64,000 nt of DNA from Dictyostelium discoideum (taxonomy: Eukaryota). The translations under genes were made by a program, and so were the position numbers. The stretch covers positions 4,608,001 to 4,672,000 of the forward strand of contig CM000151.3 of NCBI GenBank assembly GCA_000004695.1, read 5' to 3'. A model generated the notes under the pieces. That model saw only the letters and a list, made by a program, of their open reading frames with translations, was not told the DNA's origin and did not search any database. Position 1 is the stretch's first letter; each line of letters begins with the position of its first letter. Positions 17,298 through 54,598 of the stretch are shown in pieces.

Positions 17298-19388
17298 ATG
17301 ATAGCAAGTTATTTTGAAGTAGTCGCAATTAAAGATCATAAACCAATTCATCAATCCCAATTATTATTTAGAAAGGGAGAAAAGATATTAGTTGTAGAGA
17401 CAGCACCAACAGGATGGTGGAAAGGTGAAATTGGTAATAGAAAAGGGTTGTTCCCAGAATCTTACGTTTCACAATCACCAACACCATCAATGATAACATC
17501 ACCAGTTCCAACCTCACCATTGGTTCATACAACAATCACTTCAACACCAAATGTTGCATCACCACAATCTTTAAATATTGAAAATAATAATATTACACTA
17601 TTACCACCTCCACCTCCAGTTATAATTAGTAATGAAGAATCAACATCATCAGCAGCATCATATTCATCTTCATTATCTTCATCCTCTCAACTACAACAAC
17701 AGCCACAAGCACCACAATTAGTTGTACCACCAATTAAACAATTAAATAAAGTTGGATCATCAGTAACATTTAGTGATTCACCATCAGTTATAATTTCATC
17801 TTCAACAGCTACAACAACTAATAATGGTACATTATCACCAACAACTTCTTCACCACACACCGATAGTCCAATTAATAAATCACCACGTTTTAATATTTCA
17901 CCAACTGATATAGCAAATTCAGCACCAAGAATGACAAGCCACACAAGAAAGAATTCAGGTCCTGCAAAATCAATCTCCTCTCAAAATGATAGTAGTGATG
18001 ATAGTGATACTTCTCCAACATTGAAAGGTGTTAATGGTGGTGTTAATGTTGGTGGTGGTATTGGTGGTGAAGGTATTTCATCCACAAGTAAACCAAATAA
18101 ACAATATAGTAGTGCAACTGTAAACATTAAAGATTTAAAACAACATATGGAAAAGCACCAACAAAATTCAACAATGGGTAGAAATGTTAATTCACGTACT
18201 CCATTACATTCAACTGGTAGAGGTATCAGCGTTGGTGATGTAAATACAGAGGTTCCCTATTATATTTGTCGTGCCATTGAAGCACATTCTCAGCAAGGTT
18301 TTGACGAACTAGAATTTCAAGTTGGTGACTTAATTGTAATCTATAATTCAAAAACTGTTGATTCAGATTGGTGGGTTGGTCGTTTTAAAACAACTTATGG
18401 TTTATTACCAAAGAAATGTGTTGAAATTATTAGAGATATTTCTCCAACTTCTGCAACTGCATTATCACCTTCAAAATCATCACCAACTACATCAACAACA
18501 ACAACAACAACGACAACAACTACTAATACCGCTACAACAGCATCTCCACCAATTAAATCAACAATAGCCACACCACCACCACCATTACAAAAACCTATAA
18601 CACCAGCACCACAAACAACTTTTACTCCAGTACCACCACAACCAGCACCATATAAGTTTGATATAAACTCAAATTATAAAAAAGGTATTGCTTTAACAAA
18701 TTATAATAGCCAATTTGCAACTTATCTTTCATTTAAAAAAGGTGATATAATGGTATTAGAATCAAAAGAGGGTGATTTTTGGAAAGCACGTATTGGTGGT
18801 CAAGTTGGTTTAGTTTCTCCAAATTATATTAGAGAACATGATGTACAAGTACATCCACCAACTACAACCTTTACTGCTTCAGTTTATGATAACTCAAATA
18901 ATTCAAATAATTCAAATAGTAATAGTAATAATATAAGTAATACTACAAATAGTAATAATGATAATATTAATACCAATATTAATAATTTAGCACTACCAGT
19001 AAAACCATCACCACCAATATCACCAAGAACAAACAACAACAACAACAATAATAATAGTATTAATAATAATGTAAATAGAAACGAAAATGAAAATACCAAT
19101 ATTAATCATGAACAACAACAACAATCAAAAACAGTAAATATATCTCAAATTAAAAATGATGCTAATAAAAGTAGTGAAATTGATGATGATGGTATAGCTA
19201 GAAAAATTAGGGATTCATTTACTCATTTCCAAACCAGGGAGGAATTACTTGATGCAATTCAAAATCTAGCAATTAAATTTGTAAAACAAACATCAGCTTT
19301 GAAAAAAGAGTTACAGCAAGAACAACAAGAAAAAGCAAATCTTGAGATGGAATTACAAGAAATCAAACAAAGATATAATATAAATTAA
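17298..19388 (+). CDS. Triple SH3-domain adaptor protein with Pro/Thr-rich linkers and C-terminal coiled coil
   Basis: Three SH3 domains are recognisable: residues 5-60 (YFEVVAIKDH...GWWKGEIGNRKGLFPESYV), ~318-375 (YYICRAIEAH...DWWVGRFKTTYGLLPKKCVEII) and ~455-512 (ALTNYNSQ...GDFWKARIGGQVGLVSPNYIRE). The C-terminus is EQQEKANLEMELQEIKQRY. Single exon, ATG at 17298, TAA at 19386. Confidence 0.75.
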   Translation: MIASYFEVVAIKDHKPIHQSQLLFRKGEKILVVETAPTGWWKGEIGNRKGLFPESYVSQSPTPSMITSPVPTSPLVHTTITSTPNVASPQSLNIENNNITLLPPPPPVIISNEESTSSAASYSSSLSSSSQLQQQPQAPQLVVPPIKQLNKVGSSVTFSDSPSVIISSSTATTTNNGTLSPTTSSPHTDSPINKSPRFNISPTDIANSAPRMTSHTRKNSGPAKSISSQNDSSDDSDTSPTLKGVNGGVNVGGGIGGEGISSTSKPNKQYSSATVNIKDLKQHMEKHQQNSTMGRNVNSRTPLHSTGRGISVGDVNTEVPYYICRAIEAHSQQGFDELEFQVGDLIVIYNSKTVDSDWWVGRFKTTYGLLPKKCVEIIRDISPTSATALSPSKSSPTTSTTTTTTTTTTNTATTASPPIKSTIATPPPPLQKPITPAPQTTFTPVPPQPAPYKFDINSNYKKGIALTNYNSQFATYLSFKKGDIMVLESKEGDFWKARIGGQVGLVSPNYIREHDVQVHPPTTTFTASVYDNSNNSNNSNSNSNNISNTTNSNNDNINTNINNLALPVKPSPPISPRTNNNNNNNNSINNNVNRNENENTNINHEQQQQSKTVNISQIKNDANKSSEIDDDGIARKIRDSFTHFQTREELLDAIQNLAIKFVKQTSALKKELQQEQQEKANLEMELQEIKQRYNIN

Positions 19389-32379: not shown

Positions 32380-32779
32380 TTGGTTGGAATGCCAAGCTTC
32401 AGTGGCAGAATGTTCAGTCAACAATCAAACAGTAAATAATACAATTTCAATCATTCATTAAAAATTTATTATTTTATCAAAGCAACAAATTCTGATCAGT
32501 GCGACTATATCTTTTGAAATTTATTAGCAGCAGTTGATTATTTTATGGTTGCAACAACTCTAATAGGATGAATTCTAGTAACAAACAGATAATCTACTTG
32601 TCGATGGCAAATATTGTTCAACATTCACAACTAATTGATAGAACTGATTCAATAGAAGTTTTATATCAACTCTTGATATTTGCCAATATGTTTGGACCAA
32701 TAATAATAACAATGGTAAAGAAGAATCAGATGAGCCAATATTAAAAGTTGGTAATAATGTTTAGGTTCATTCAATACTG

Positions 32780-34340
32780 GAAAACTTAGAAACCTCCAAT
32801 AAAGTGAGTGATGATGGTAATACATCTTTTTGAATTGGTTGTTCGTAACTTGGTAATTTTAATATCTCTATCGATGATGGTAGATCTCCAACATTTAATG
32901 GTAGATCGAATTCATATATTATTAATTTTTTAAGATTATTCGGTAGGAGACTATTGTTTAATTTGAAATTTTATAAAACTGTCAAAGTTAGTTTTATAAT
33001 GGTAGGTGAGAATTCTACACCAGTTAAATCCACTCCAATTGCATTAAGTTCCAATGATTTTAAATTTTCAAAAATATGGAAAGAGTGGCTATCTAATTGG
33101 GTAAAATTATTTGAACCAATTATTTTTAGTTTTTCAATTGTTTTGGGCAATATTCCGATGTCAGAGAATGTAACAATTGATAAATTTGTAATTGTTGGCG
33201 GAAAGACTTTTTGAGTAAAAATGGTTCTGTTTCGACCTAGACCTAAAGTTTTAATTGATATTGGTAATGAATTTGGTTCAAGTTTATAATCGCCCATACG
33301 GAATTTCAACGATGTAACATAGTGTGGAATCATACCTTTTTCAATGGTCCCATTATAATAAAAATCAAACTCCAATGAAGTTGTACCACCTGGTACCGAC
33401 GTTAAGTCAAATTTATATATGTCGTGTTCTTTAAAAAATAAAGAATAATGAAGAGTTGTTACTGATTTTGGTATTGATCCATATTGGATTACTCCTTTGT
33501 ACACTGGAATAAATATTAGTGTTGTAAGTGATGGTGGCATTTCATCTCTATGAATTGAATGTTGAAATGATTTTCCAAAAGTTAAAGATTTTAATGTTCT
33601 TGGTAACCATGGTTCACCTTTTGTGTCACTTAACGATTGATTAAATTCATTACTAAAATTAATGGATGTTAGACTATTACCAATAATGTTACGGGTTAAT
33701 TGTTGATCAAAATAGGTAAATTTAATGGATTTACAAGTATCTGGTATCCAATGATCTACTAGTATAATATCTGAACAATTCATCTCTATCTTTTCTGCAG
33801 TTGATGGCATTGGACAACAATTTGAGATATTTTGTTGGTGGTTGTTATTCTCATCAGAATTCGATATGTTGGAATTATTAAAATAATTTCTATATTTATA
33901 TGTTGAAATATTATGTCCCCCTATATCAATGCTATAAATGATTCTGATTATTATATATTCTAAGATGAAATAAAATTTGATCCCTGATAAATATATTTCC
34001 CCAAACTTTTTTTAAATAATATAATTATTATCAAGTGTTTGATATATTTGTTGATTCGTTCTTACTTTATTAATATCAATTAATTTTAAAATCACAACCT
34101 GATTTAAATTATTGCATTTATTATTACTATTATTGGTGGTATGATTTAAATTATTTTTAATGGTGATATGATGATTTAAATTATTTTTAATGATTATAAG
34201 TATTGAACAATCGAATGCAATTCTTTTATTTCTTTTTGTTAATTGTGTCATTACTATTTTCTGTAATTGAAGGTTTTGATTATTGTTTTTATAATTAATA
34301 CCATTACATTAATCTTGAAGTTGGTTGAATGTAATATTTA
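32780..34340 (-). pseudogene. Decayed FNIP-array copy G4: truncated at both ends, internal deletion fusing exon-2 and exon-1 sequence
   Basis: ORF 32971..33810 holds the FNIP-repeat core (...FNQSLSDTKGEPWLPRTLKSLTFGKSFQHS...). The C-terminal coding stops matching at ~32780. The 5' side (33810..34340) is homologous but shows frameshifts and a deletion, then runs into a non-AT-rich block at 34350. Confidence 0.55.
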
Positions 34341-34484
34341 AATTATTAACATCCAAGCCATGATCGCTTAGAAGGGCTTGTATTAACCCGTTGGCACGAA
34401 TAGCCCGGACAGCAGGACAGCCCTTAAAAAAAATTTTAAAAAAAAAAGGGCTGGTTTCAAGATTTTTTTTTTTTTTTTAAAATA

Positions 34485-35195
34485 AAAAAGGACCACACAG
34501 GCTTATAAAAAGAATTAATTTGTCATAAAAATTAAATGTAATAAACGTATTAAAAAAATTTTAAAATTTTAAAATGTAATGAATGTATTAAAAAAATTTT
34601 ATAATTTAAAATGTAATAAACGTATTAAATTATTAAAAAGAAATGTATTATTTTAAATAAAAAAATAATAGATATTTAAGTGTTATGAAGGAAGTTTTTT
34701 TTTATTTAAGTTTAATAAATTTAAATTAAAGCATGGAGATTTGTCACATTAATTTTTTATTTTTCGAGAACCTGCCTCTCTCTTTTTGACTCAGACATTT
34801 TTTTTTTTTTTATTTTTTTTTTTTTTTTTGGCTTGAATATTTTGTCGGCAAGCTGCCGAAAGAATTAATGTGATCATTTTTACCGGCCGGTAGTTTTAAT
34901 ATGGGAACCATTAGTTAATATGTATTGTCACTACAGTCTTTTGCGGTGTTTTGTTTAAAGTTGATTCTTTTCAAATATTGGGACTTCCCATATAAAACTA
35001 CCGGCCGGTAAAAATGTCACATTAATTCTTTCGGCAGCTTGCCGACAAAATATTCAAGCCAAAAAAAAAAAAAAAAAATAAAAAAAAAAAATATCTGAGT
35101 CAAAAAATCACATAAAAAAAAAAAATGAGCGAAATTTTTTGACAATCTGGTTTATTAATTCAAATTATTATTTTAATAATAATAATAATAATTTT

Positions 35196-35249
<54 letters not shown>

Positions 35250-35530
35250 CTGAGTCAGTTTTTAAAAAACAAAAAAAAAAAAATTAATGTGACAAATTAT
35301 TAAATAGTTATTTATTGAAATATTTATTTTCGTATGTGCGACTGACTGTGTCTTTTATTTTTGATATTTTCTTTGTATGATTTTGGTTTATTATTTGAAA
35401 TAAATAAATTCATTGGAAGTGCCACCATTTAAATTTTTTTTTTTTTTTTGGGAAAAAACAACATGTGTATTTGGATCCATTTGAAAAGATTGTAAAAAGG
35501 ACTACACAGGCTTATAAAAAGGTTTTTTTT
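34485..35530. mobile_element. Composite non-coding element: ~27-bp direct repeats at both ends, 33-bp tandem repeats, and a nested ~310-bp perfect hairpin with TTGTCACATTAAT termini. MITE-like, non-autonomous DNA-transposon-like
   Basis: AAAAGGACCACACAGGCTTATAAAAAG at 34487 and AAAAGGACTACACAGGCTTATAAAAAG at 35497. (aaatgtaataaacgtattaaaaaaattttaaaattttaa)x3 at 34545..34650. Long inverted repeat arms gactcagacattttt...ggcttgaatattttgtcggcaagctgccgaaagaattaatgtgatca (34788..34895) against tgtcacattaattctttcggcagcttgccgacaaaatattcaagcc...atatctgagtc (35022..35100). Extra terminus copies at 34742 (ttgtcacattaat) and 35246..35295 (atatctgagtc...attaatgtgacaa). No ORF. Confidence 0.45.
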
Positions 35531-35739
35531 AAAAAAAATTAAAAAAAAAAAATAAAAACAATAAAAAAAACGATAAAAACATTACAATTTTTTAATTTTT
35601 TGTTAATTAATGTTCTTTTAAATAAAAAAAAATATATAAAAATAAAAAATAAAAAAAATAAAATAAAACAATTACATCAAAACAGTTGTTTTAAAAATTA
35701 ATATTTTTATTTTATATTTTTTTTTTTTTAAAATTGTTC

Positions 35740-37821
35740 ACTTTGTAATAGTTTTACATGTTTGATAAAGAAATGTGTGGGAATGGAATTTATAAAATCT
35801 AAACTATCACCACAGATATAAATAAATTCAAATGAAGGTGGCCATATTAAATCTGGTAATTCTTTACAACCATAACCTGTAAAATAAAATTATTTTAAAT
35901 TTGGTGGCAATGCATCTCTATCCATACTTGAATTGAAAAAATCTGAAACGCCTAATAAAGTGAGTGATAATGGAAATAAATCTTTTTAAATTGGTTGTTT
36001 GTACTGTGGTAGCTTTAATACCTCTATTGATGATGGTAAATCTCCAACATTTAATGGTTGATTAAAATTAAATAATTTTAATTTTTTAAAATTATTTTGT
36101 AAGAGACAATCATTAAATTCCAAATAATCTGAAACTGCTAAAGTTAATCTTGAAATAATATTTGGGAATTTTACATTGGTTAAATCCACCTGTTTTGCAT
36201 CAAAGTTCAATGATGTTAAATTTTTAAGAAAATAAAAAGAGTGGTTATCTAATTGGGAAGGAGGACTAAAATCCATTATTTTTAGTTTTTGAATTGTTTT
36301 CGGTAATATTTTGATATCAGAGAATGTATATACTGATAAATTTGTAATTGCTTGTGGGAAGACATCTCGAGGAAAGTTTTGGTTGCTACCAAGATGTAGA
36401 GTTTTAATTGAGATAGGTAATGAATTTGATTTAATTATACTATTGCAGAAACTGAATTTCAACGATGTAACATTGTGTGAAATCATACCTTTTTCAATGG
36501 TCTGGTCAAAAAAAGAATCAAACTCTAATGATGTTGTACCACCTGGTATCGATGTTGAGTCTAATTTAGCACCACCCTTAGAATCAAAATAATAATGAAG
36601 AGTTGTTACCGATTTTGGTATTGATCCATATTCGATTACTCCTTTATATTTTGGATCCAATATTAATGATGTAAGTGATGGTGGTATTTCGTCTCTATGA
36701 ATTGAATGTTGAAAAGATTTTCCAAAAGTTAAAGATTTTAATGTTCTTGGTAACCATGGTATACCATTTTTGTCACTTAATGATTGATTAAAATCCTTGC
36801 CAAAATCAATGGATGTTAGACTATTACCAATGATATTACGAGTTAATTGTTGATTAAAATGCGAAAATATAATGGATTTACATGTATCTGGTATCCAGTG
36901 GTCTACTAGTATAATATCTGAACATCTCATCTCTATCTTTTCCACAATTTGTGGTATTGGATAACAATTTGAGTTATGTTGGTCGCATAAGCCATTAAAA
37001 CTCAATAACTTGACATTATTAAAATAATTTCTGTATTTATATGTTGAAATATTATTTCTCTTTATTTCAAATGCTATGATTATGATTATTATATATTCTA
37101 AGATGAAATAAAATTTGATCCCTGATAAATATATTTCCCCAAACTTTTTTAAATAATTTATAATTATTATCAATTGTTTGATCTATTTGTTGATTTGTTC
37201 TTATTTTATTATTTAAATCAGGTTGTGGTTTTAAAATCAATTGATTTAAATTATTACTATTATCATTATTTTTAATGGTGATATGATGATTTAAATTATT
37301 TTTAATGATTATAAGTATTGAACAATCGAATGCAATTCTTTTATTTCTATTGTTAATTGTGTCATTACTATTATTGTTATTATCTGTAATTGAATGATTA
37401 TATATAACTTCATCATTAGAATTATTGGTTGTAAATGTGTTTTTTAAATTTTGAATATGATTATTTAGTGTTTGAAATTGCTGATCATTTAATCCTTTTA
37501 AATCATTTAAATGCTTTTTTTCCTCTTCTTCTTGTCTATATAAATATGTTTTTATAAATTAGTATAATAATAAAAATAATAATAAAAATAATATATAAAA
37601 CAATCAAAGTGTGTTAATGCATACAATATTTTTTTTCTTTTTTTTATTTGAAGGTTTTGATTATTGTTTTTGTAATTATTGATACTATTACAATAATCTT
37701 GAAGTTGGTTGAATGTAATGTTTAAATTATTAATTGATAATATTAATAAACAATTTAAAAACTCTTCATTGTTTTTATTATTATAATTATTAATTAAATA
37801 AGAGTAAATTATGTTATCCAT
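35740..37821 (-). pseudogene. FNIP-array copy G5 with a +1 frameshift near 37080 and a premature stop at 35986: probable pseudogene
   Basis: Exon 1 is intact (MDNIIYSYLINNYNNKNNEEFLNCLLILSINNLNITFNQLQDYCNSINNYKNNNQNLQIKKRKK, start 37821). Exon 2 has a 1-nt insertion (catagcAtttgaaata vs G3 catagctttgatata), so the acceptor frame hits TGA. ORF 35986..37173 stops at ...YKQPI*, where intact copies continue another ~95 aa. The homologous tail 35740..35985 contains further stops. Confidence 0.5.
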
Positions 37822-37991
37822 TTGATATTAAAAAAAAAAAAAAAAAAAAATCTCCAAAAAAAAAAAAAAAAAAAAAAAAAAATATCTCCAAAAAAAAAAA
37901 AAAAAGCTTTTTTTTTTGGGGCAGTGTTTTTTTTTTTTATTTTTAAATTTTTATTTTTAAACTTTAATAACAAGAAAAACATTTTATAATA

Positions 37992-53588: not shown

Positions 53589-54598
53589 TTAAGCCATTTC
53601 AAGTTCAGCACCAGAAGCCTTTAATTTAGCAATAATCTTTTCTGCTTCTTCTTTTGAAACTTTATCGGCAATAACTGAAGGAATCTTTTCAACGAGACCT
53701 TTAGTTTCCATTAAACTGAGTGATGGTTTGACTTCTCTTAATTCTTTAATAATCTTATATTTGGCACCATCTGGTACTTTAACGAGTCTAACTTGGAAAT
53801 CTGTTTTGGCAACAGCGGCTGGTGCAGCAGCGGCAGCTGGGGCAGCTCCACCTGCTGGGGCACCTGAACCGAGACTGGAAAGATCAATATCTGGAATACT
53901 TAATTTTTTCTATAAAATAAATAAAAAAAAAATAAAAAAAGGGGAGAGGTTTATGATTAGCATCACAAAAAGTGGTAAATCAAAATTCCATTTACAAAGA
54001 TTTTAATATTTTTCATTTTTTTTTTTTTTTTTAATGGTGATGTGTGAATAATTTTCTGTTGTTCCTTTTTCCTTTCTTTTTTCCTTTTTCCTTTTTCCTT
54101 TTTTCCTTTCTAATATTTAAATCTGTGCTATTATTTTTTTATTATTATCACTCTGACCTATTTTTGTGTTATGTGTTTGCTAAATGCTAAATTGAAATGA
54201 ACTATTTGGCCAATACTATTAAAATCATTCTAAAAAAAACTGGAAATTGATTGATTTTTTTTTTTTATTTCTTGTCGCTATAAACATTTTGATATTGTGC
54301 TGTTTGCTATATTCTACTACATTATTCACATACCAACTCACTCCATTAATTCAAAAAAAATAAAAAATAAAAAATAAAAAAAAAAAGTAAAGAATATATA
54401 AAAAATAAAATTCATACTTGTAAATGTTGGGTTAAATCCATAACGTCCAAAATGGAAAGTTTTGAGATTCTTTCGACTAAATCAGCAACTTCTGTTGAGG
54501 ATTTACCATTTTCAATTGTGGTAAGTTTAAGGTTAACTTTTTCTGGTTCTGTTGTGAATAAACGAGTGCTATATAATGTATTGTTGTTGCACTTTAAC
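53589..54598 (-). CDS. mrpl12: Mitochondrial ribosomal protein L7/L12 (bacterial bL12 type), 3'-terminal two exons: 54418..54598 and 53589..53909. The first (Met/presequence) exon is not located
   Basis: NTD: ...STEVADLVERISKLSILDVMDLTQHLQ (compare bL12 [22 protein letters not shown]). Ala/Pro hinge GAPAGGAAPAAAAAPAAVA. CTD: FQVRLVKVPDGAKYKIIKELREVKPSLSLMETKGLVEKIPSVIADKVSKEEAEKIIAKLKASGAELEMA*. Intron 53910..54417 (caa|GTATGA...ttttatag|AAA, phase 0). The upstream acceptor aaaatag|G at 54599 implies a further 5' exon. No in-frame ATG precedes it before the TAA. Confidence 0.65.

Follow-up and report, generated by a model that had tools for sequence, protein, structure and literature searches.

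The thug elements of Dictyostelium discoideum, which Glockner et al. took up in 2001, are reportedly extensive hairpin-forming inverted repeats without a transposase of their own. Thug-S and thug-T make up about 0.1% of the genome (PMC5633606), and two microRNAs (miRNAs) derived from thug-S, UAUGGCUGCUGAAAUUAAUGUGG and AUUAAUUUCGGCAGCCAUAUU, come from opposite arms of one hairpin, whose loop measures 42 nt (PMC4894637 Table 2, Table S4). Here we describe a foreign block of ~1.3 kb in a 64-kb stretch of chromosome 2 of D. discoideum AX4 (GenBank assembly GCA_000004695.1, contig CM000151.3, positions 4,608,001 to 4,672,000 of the forward strand), referred to below as the window and used for all coordinates; the block sits within a minus-strand tandem array of FNIP-repeat genes. 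The core of the block, 555 bp at 34741-35295, folds back on itself, and its best-supported reading, which we hold with somewhat better than even confidence, is a copy of a non-autonomous foldback DNA transposon resembling a miniature inverted-repeat transposable element (MITE). The family to which such a copy would belong is most probably thug or a close relative.

Little is understood about the DNA transposons of Dictyostelium, although miRNAs are known to arise from thug elements. The locus is a convenient case because its junction is precise and because it is present in AX4-type strains and absent from three others; it may help to establish by which terminal motifs the family is defined and whether hairpins of this sort undergo transcription and dicing. 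The element itself is probably fairly ordinary, a further copy, annotated or unannotated, of a class of small repeats already known from Dictyostelium, or a relative of that class.

Anatomy of the 555-bp core

The first-pass annotation, a reading of the letters alone, had described a hairpin of ~310 bp with essentially perfect arms of ~105 bp. The hairpin is real, and its dimensions are corrected here: the palindrome spans 324 bp, with core arms of 78 and 76 nt that are ~97% complementary (Table 1). CGGCAAGCTGCCG, which had been taken for the self-complementary centre, is instead a mini-hairpin with a 5-bp stem that occurs once in each arm, at 34846 and 35032. Folding had been proposed as a check, and the arms do pair (z -21 to -22). 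As DNA, the segment 34735-35300 folds at -157 kcal/mol (z -21.9); as RNA, the 231 nt of 34831-35061 fold at -134.7 kcal/mol (z -21.1), and no shuffle was as low in either case. The RNA value amounts to -0.58 kcal/mol/nt, well beyond the hairpin criterion of -0.2 kcal/mol/nt quoted in PMC6161686 Table S1.

Read from left to right, the layout is motif a, a 33-nt spacer, motif b with a T32 run, left arm, loop, right arm, an A31 run with b', 97 unpaired nt, an A47 run with a second b', a 25-nt spacer and a'. Terminal inverted repeats are thus present, and inside them each side carries a subterminal TGACTCAGAYAT motif and a homopolymer run. Motif a, of the TTGTCACATTAAT type, occurs four times in alternating orientation, at 34741(+), 34864(-), 35014(+) and 35283(-), where 0.26 copies are expected; TGACTCAGAYAT occurs three times, at 34787(+), 35091(-) and 35246(-), where 0.12 are expected. 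These above-chance counts bear out the earlier remark that extra copies of the arm termini lie outside the hairpin.

The two outer ends agree in motif a (13/13), in motif b (11/12) and in having the homopolymer run, whereas the 25-33 nt between a and b cannot be aligned between them. Because conservation is so uneven, with the motifs kept and the sequence between them unrelated, a and b look like constrained sites; the pattern fits conserved binding sites better than it fits the even decay of a duplicated segment.

The element is small and has no coding capacity. Its longest open frame, 47 codons at 34725-34865 (+), consists in large part of T-runs, and no open reading frame (ORF) in the whole block exceeds 55 codons; the longest, at 34312-34476 (-), runs into the remnant of an FNIP exon 1. 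We considered a hidden protein gene or fragment and rejected it: no frame is similar to a protein of the window, nine small ORFs are absent from a collection of 15 billion proteins, and the non-trivial frames, concatenated, found no homologue among 5.8 billion proteins. A known RNA family was likewise rejected for both the hairpin and the GC-rich island at the left edge of the block, neither of which reached an Rfam gathering score; relaxed scans gave E values of at least 0.24.

Limits of the block and its distribution among strains

The block starts exactly at 34350 and ends within 35522-35672. On its left lies a decayed FNIP gene copy, here called G4, whose homology extends to 34349 and whose exon-1 remnant NNLNITFNQLQD (minus-strand frame) ends at 34347; comparison with strain L131 (GCA_054859385.1), in which 3513-3431 match 34270-34349 of the window at 90%, places the junction inside exon 1. 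On the right, homology to the FNIP 3' flank resumes between 35636 and 35702 (blastn and alignment to the 3' flanks of paralogues), and the edge is not placeable more exactly because the final ~150 bp are rich in A.

Outside the block itself, the window contains nothing that matches any part of it, and the syntenic FNIP arrays of L004, L005 and L131, three other D. discoideum strains with wild-strain assemblies (GCA_054859205.1, GCA_054859355.1 and GCA_054859385.1), lack the block; by comparison with these it is confined to the AX4 laboratory lineage. It is not a simple insertion, since it replaces ~140 bp of the array, namely a short spacer and the first 88 bp of G4 exon 1, whereas the L131 orthologue of G4 keeps a spacer of ~50 bp and a complete exon 1.

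Assembly is error-prone at long homopolymer runs and perfect inverted repeats, and we therefore weighed the reading that the reference palindrome is chimeric or was joined wrongly. Such an artefact is extremely improbable, because an independent assembly carries the same structure: in L006 (GCA_054883475.1), an annotated re-assembly of a near-identical strain, the block with its hairpin stands at the same position, and the hairpin differs from that of the window only by two substitutions at the junction of left arm and loop (34907, the last base of the arm, and 34914, in the loop) and by homopolymer lengths. Between 19236 and 41295 of the window, 22 kb of L006 align at 99.7% identity, with 29 mismatches and 11 gaps, which makes this assembly closely related to the AX4 reference without being identical to it. 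Its annotation has genes at the equivalents of 35704-37796 (667 aa) and 32761-34245 (429 aa, the G4 copy) and none between the equivalents of 34245 and 35704.

The first-pass annotation had suggested that the element truncated G4. This holds for the lost promoter side and for the 88 bp with which exon 1 began, and does not hold for the main decay of the gene. G4 carries an internal deletion, defined relative to L131, and its orthologues in strains without the block have decayed too, differently in L005 and L131, while the copy is missing in L004; on these grounds the decay is independent of the block, which took the 5' end and promoter side of an already degenerating gene.

Table 1. Features of the block and its immediate neighbours in window coordinates
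Feature	Position	Strand	Remarks
Decayed FNIP copy G4	32761-34349	-	5'-truncated at codon ~30 of exon 1; internal deletion 34270/34271; DNA homology to full-length paralogues
GC-rich island, first bases of the foreign block	34350-34423		54% GC; window mean 23%
Direct-repeat unit 1: T16 and 27-mer AAAAGGACCACACAGGCTTATAAAAAG (34486-34512) with TATAAAAA box	34445-34512	+	
Tandem repeat, 38 bp x 2.8 copies	34526-34629		Tandem Repeats Finder (TRF) score 164, 86% matches
Outer left terminal inverted repeat TTGTCACATTAAT (motif a)	34741-34753	+	13 nt
Left subterminal motif b TGACTCAGACAT and 32-nt T-run abutting G34830	34787-34829	+	
Left core arm	34830-34907	+	Holds mini-hairpin CGGCAAGCTGCCG (34846-34858), inverted motif a (34864-34873) and palindrome CCGGCCGG
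Non-palindromic 77-nt loop	34908-34984		Includes L006 substitution 34914
Right core arm	34985-35060	-	~97% complementary, two 1-nt indels; motif a at 35014-35026
A-run and first motif b' ATATCTGAGTCA	35061-35102	-	Closes the 324-bp palindrome 34783-35106
Spacer without left-side partner	35103-35199		Includes (TAA)6 run
A47 run and outer motif b' ATATCTGAGTCA	35200-35257	-	Pairs with 34787-34829, 95% over 43 nt
Outer right terminal inverted repeat ATTAATGTGACAA (motif a')	35283-35295	-	13/13 match with left
AT-rich unique sequence between foldback element and direct-repeat unit 2	35296-35415		Unmatched in rest of window and in other strains
Direct-repeat unit 2: T16, 38-bp extra segment and 27-mer AAAAGGACTACACAGGCTTATAAAAAG (35495-35521)	35416-35521	+	
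A-rich zone holding the right edge of the block	35522-35672		Alignment to FNIP paralogue 3' flanks
Neighbouring FNIP gene, DDB_G0274635 region	35704-37796	-	3' end intact, untouched by the block

Origin of the core

With its ~555 bp, its lack of coding sequence, its terminal inverted repeats and subterminal motifs and its long internal inverted repeats, the core resembles MITEs and foldback (FB-type) transposons; like these it is found in one lineage and absent from others, and unlike these it has no clear target-site duplication. The earlier assignment to a MITE-like transposon of the DDT or thug kind thus keeps its footing in the terminal and subterminal inverted motifs, the foldback core, the absence of coding capacity and the restriction to one lineage; at the target site no duplication is convincing. 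In the mechanism we envisage, a transposase supplied in trans would bind the repeated TTGTCACATTAAT and TGACTCAGAYAT motifs at or near both ends and would cut and paste the element, and the adjacent 140 bp would have been deleted either at arrival or in later repair.

Like thug-S, a small hairpin-former of the same species without a transposase, the element combines hairpin-forming inverted repeats with the lack of any transposase ORF. Its arm reads GCTGCCGAAAGAATTAATGTGA (complement CACATTAATTCTTTCGGCAGC), so that CACATTAAT is followed by TTTCGGCAGC, resembling the thug-S miRNA pair; as in the arms of the thug-S hairpin (miRNA_can_D3), the terminal motif CACATTAAT precedes T(T/C)(C/A)G(C/G)AGC, a word that is rare and GC-rich. 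We scored this similarity with a composition-aware local score, which weights G and C by their rarity, against control tiles of D. discoideum DNA, and found the score matched by 0/135 tiles for the 3p miRNA and by 3/135 for the 5p miRNA. The match differs from identity by a 2-3-nt indel, and the comparison covers ~18-20 nt of the two miRNAs; within 5 edits, the element holds no full-length match to a thug-S miRNA. The two also differ in build, the thug-S hairpin having a 42-nt loop and arms of 21-23 nt and this element core arms of 78 nt, and thug-S is in dictyBase a gene model with an intron, whereas the element has no ORF. The resemblance of the arms is suggestive of a family relationship, not proof of one, and membership of the thug family is plausible.

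Several observations weigh against the transposon reading. About 190 kb of other D. discoideum DNA held no second copy; this comprised the rest of the window, ~65 kb of further FNIP arrays (L001, L004, L005 and L131) and 78 kb near four Tdd-4-type integrase genes. The last were reached with the Tdd-4 integrase sequence from PMC2836005 and were chosen as transposon-rich loci because the dictyBase gene DDB_G0270824 joins Tdd-4 and thug-S; these four loci hold neither the element nor a thug-S miRNA sequence. The absence of a second copy is weak evidence, since the DNA searched is less than 1% of the genome. Under plain scoring, 1-3 of 44 control tiles equal the thug-S similarity, which spans only ~18-20 nt and whose two miRNA matches are not independent. 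A clean empty site for the 555-bp element alone was seen at no site, L004, L005 and L131 lacking the block as a whole. The ends at 34741 and 35295 show no clear target-site duplication: the flanks, ...GCATGGAGA(T) and (A)TTATTAAAT, allow at most a 2-bp AT duplication, and that only if the repeat is 13 nt long, which is the chance expectation in DNA of 77% A+T. A simple MITE, lastly, leaves the GC-rich island and the direct repeats spaced by 1 kb unexplained.

A serious rival, to which we give a clearly lower probability, is an origin in place: a double-strand break in the FNIP array would have been mended with filler DNA and fold-back (hairpin-primed) synthesis, leaving an inverted duplication with stacked partial end copies at a locus that would be unique in the genome. 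It would account for a single copy in all the DNA searched, for the missing target-site duplication and for the ~140 bp that are replaced rather than interrupted, and it suits both an array in which each strain has different deletions and a block that is a patchwork of GC-rich island, direct repeats, tandem repeat and palindrome. If a duplication had simply decayed neutrally, one would not expect the outer ends to keep two short motifs almost perfectly with unrelated sequence between them. The inverted motif a inside each arm, which brings the copies to four in alternating orientation as with repeated transposase-binding sites, and the resemblance of the arm to the thug-S hairpin small RNAs also argue against this rival.

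MITE-derived miRNAs exist in plants, and a foldback transposon here may also be a source of hairpin RNA. Each arm starts with a G right after a T-run of ~32 nt, and the loci listed in the available part of PMC6161686 Table S3 (14 pri-miRNA loci analysed) have T-rich motifs ending in G. By analogy with such pri-miRNA start sites, the layout would allow transcription from either strand, and since the structure is palindromic either strand would give the same long hairpin; the transcript would form a near-perfect RNA hairpin of ~77 bp, which Dicer-like enzymes could process as in thug-S. In its near-perfect inverted repeat with T-run and G ahead, the element is like transposon-derived hairpin small-RNA loci such as the thug-S miRNAs.

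It is quite doubtful that this is a hairpin-RNA gene (miRNA or endogenous small interfering RNA) in its own right, whose T-run and G on both strands drive the 231-nt hairpin with small RNAs as its product, and whose transposon ancestry is secondary or absent. The depth of the RNA fold (-134.7 kcal/mol, z -21), the G after 32 T at each arm and the fact that thug-S hairpins yield DrnB/RbdB-dependent miRNAs would fit such a gene, whereas T-runs are common in intergenic DNA of Dictyostelium, the hairpin is absent from other D. discoideum strains and hence not conserved, and no gene in the window has complementarity to it on the scale of a 21-mer. It is also unmatched in the available parts of the miRNA tables of PMC4894637 and PMC6161686, which counts against the foldback transposon as well. 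We would give rather more credence, while still thinking it improbable, to a hairpin-RNA gene that is young and specific to the lineage, arose from a foldback transposon and serves as an AX4-specific source of small RNA; if true, this would add to the thug-S miRNAs a live amoebozoan case of a transposon giving rise to a miRNA. Kinship with mir-1180, considered for the common 8-mers TGTCACAT and TGACTCAG, was rejected, since among so many 8-mers compared some would coincide by chance.

Wider searches were of little help. Metagenomes scanned for a degenerate pattern of 18 bases returned only chance matches, the pattern being too short. Prokaryote genomes and viral contigs gave no match to a thug-S miRNA, nor did viral contigs to the hairpin arm, and full-text literature searched with k-mers from either the element or the thug-S miRNAs gave nothing new.

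Outer parts of the block and the surrounding array

The GC-rich island at 34350, which the first-pass annotation had picked out, is present as a 74-bp stretch. The window contains six such stretches of at least 50% GC, and this is the sole one outside a long ORF. Its minus strand folds weakly (z -2.2) into a stem of 59 nt whose ends are paired, and the plus strand after the island has a CAGCCC/GGGCTG stem followed by a T16 run. Exact 20-mers of the island had no match in bacterial or archaeal genomes. A tRNA or tRNA-derived island was considered and rejected, ARAGORN finding 0 genes.

The two repeat copies ~1 kb apart are likewise present, with their starts corrected to 34486 and 35495. They consist of a 27-mer, AAAAGGACYACACAGGCTTATAAAAAG, of which the 64 kb hold only these two copies (0 expected), 1009 bp apart, and each has a T16 run upstream. 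By local alignment the direct repeat extends to 28-52 bp (score 51, as against 19 +/- 2 for shuffles). The TATAAAAA box lies within both 27-mers. On the minus strand the second 27-mer stands ~35 nt upstream of an ATG that opens a frame of only 29 codons (35480-35391); the 27-mers have no evident function. The tandem repeat that follows the first copy exists too, with a period of 38 bp in 2.8 copies instead of the three 33-bp units first reported. Between the outer parts of the block, inverted repeats amount to homopolymers only.

The island, the direct repeats and the tandem repeat could be parts of a larger element of ~1 kb, present in one and a fraction copies; they could also be the remains of another repeat that the foldback element entered, or filler DNA captured at repair.

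The FNIP array is a rearrangement hot spot, and its remodelling is documented by strain-specific deletions and, in one strain, by a separate 3-kb insertion that bears a transposase. In L131 (3292-4340), exon 1 of G4 is intact with ACG as its start codon, and a deletion has removed most of the body; L005 (12119-13700) retains only ~400 bp of G4; L004 (12343-13066) has no G4 copy. The insertion, ~2.97 kb at ~7001-9975 of L005 (GCA_054859355.1), is absent from AX4, where the empty site corresponds to window ~37830-37850, and lies in a T-run just upstream of an FNIP start codon. It has termini ...TTTCACCAAAA, an internal inverted repeat of ~90 bp and a gene of 650 aa, in which Pfam recognises a DDE_Tnp_4 (PIF/Harbinger-type) domain and, weakly, HTH_Tnp_4, and is notable because the transposases of Dictyostelium DNA transposons have been described as without similarity to known families (PMC5633606).

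Our element resembles this insertion in being polymorphic in the same FNIP array and in having an internal inverted repeat, and differs from it in size and content, 555 bp as against 3 kb with a transposase gene. The terminus ...TTTTCACCAAAA of the insertion and TTGTCACATTAAT have a TCAC core in common, a match of 9/13 between AT-rich sequences that is not significant. Kinship of the block with the Harbinger-type element was rejected, as blastn found no similarity between it and any part of the block.

Elsewhere in the window, the ORF at 17298-19388 is identical to DDB_G0274423, and that at 35986-37173 has 100% identity to the FNIP-repeat protein DDB_G0274635. The most GC-rich stretch of the window, with up to 68% GC at 53760-53907 (-), is ordinary coding sequence rich in Ala, Gly and Pro and resembles an acidic ribosomal stalk protein.

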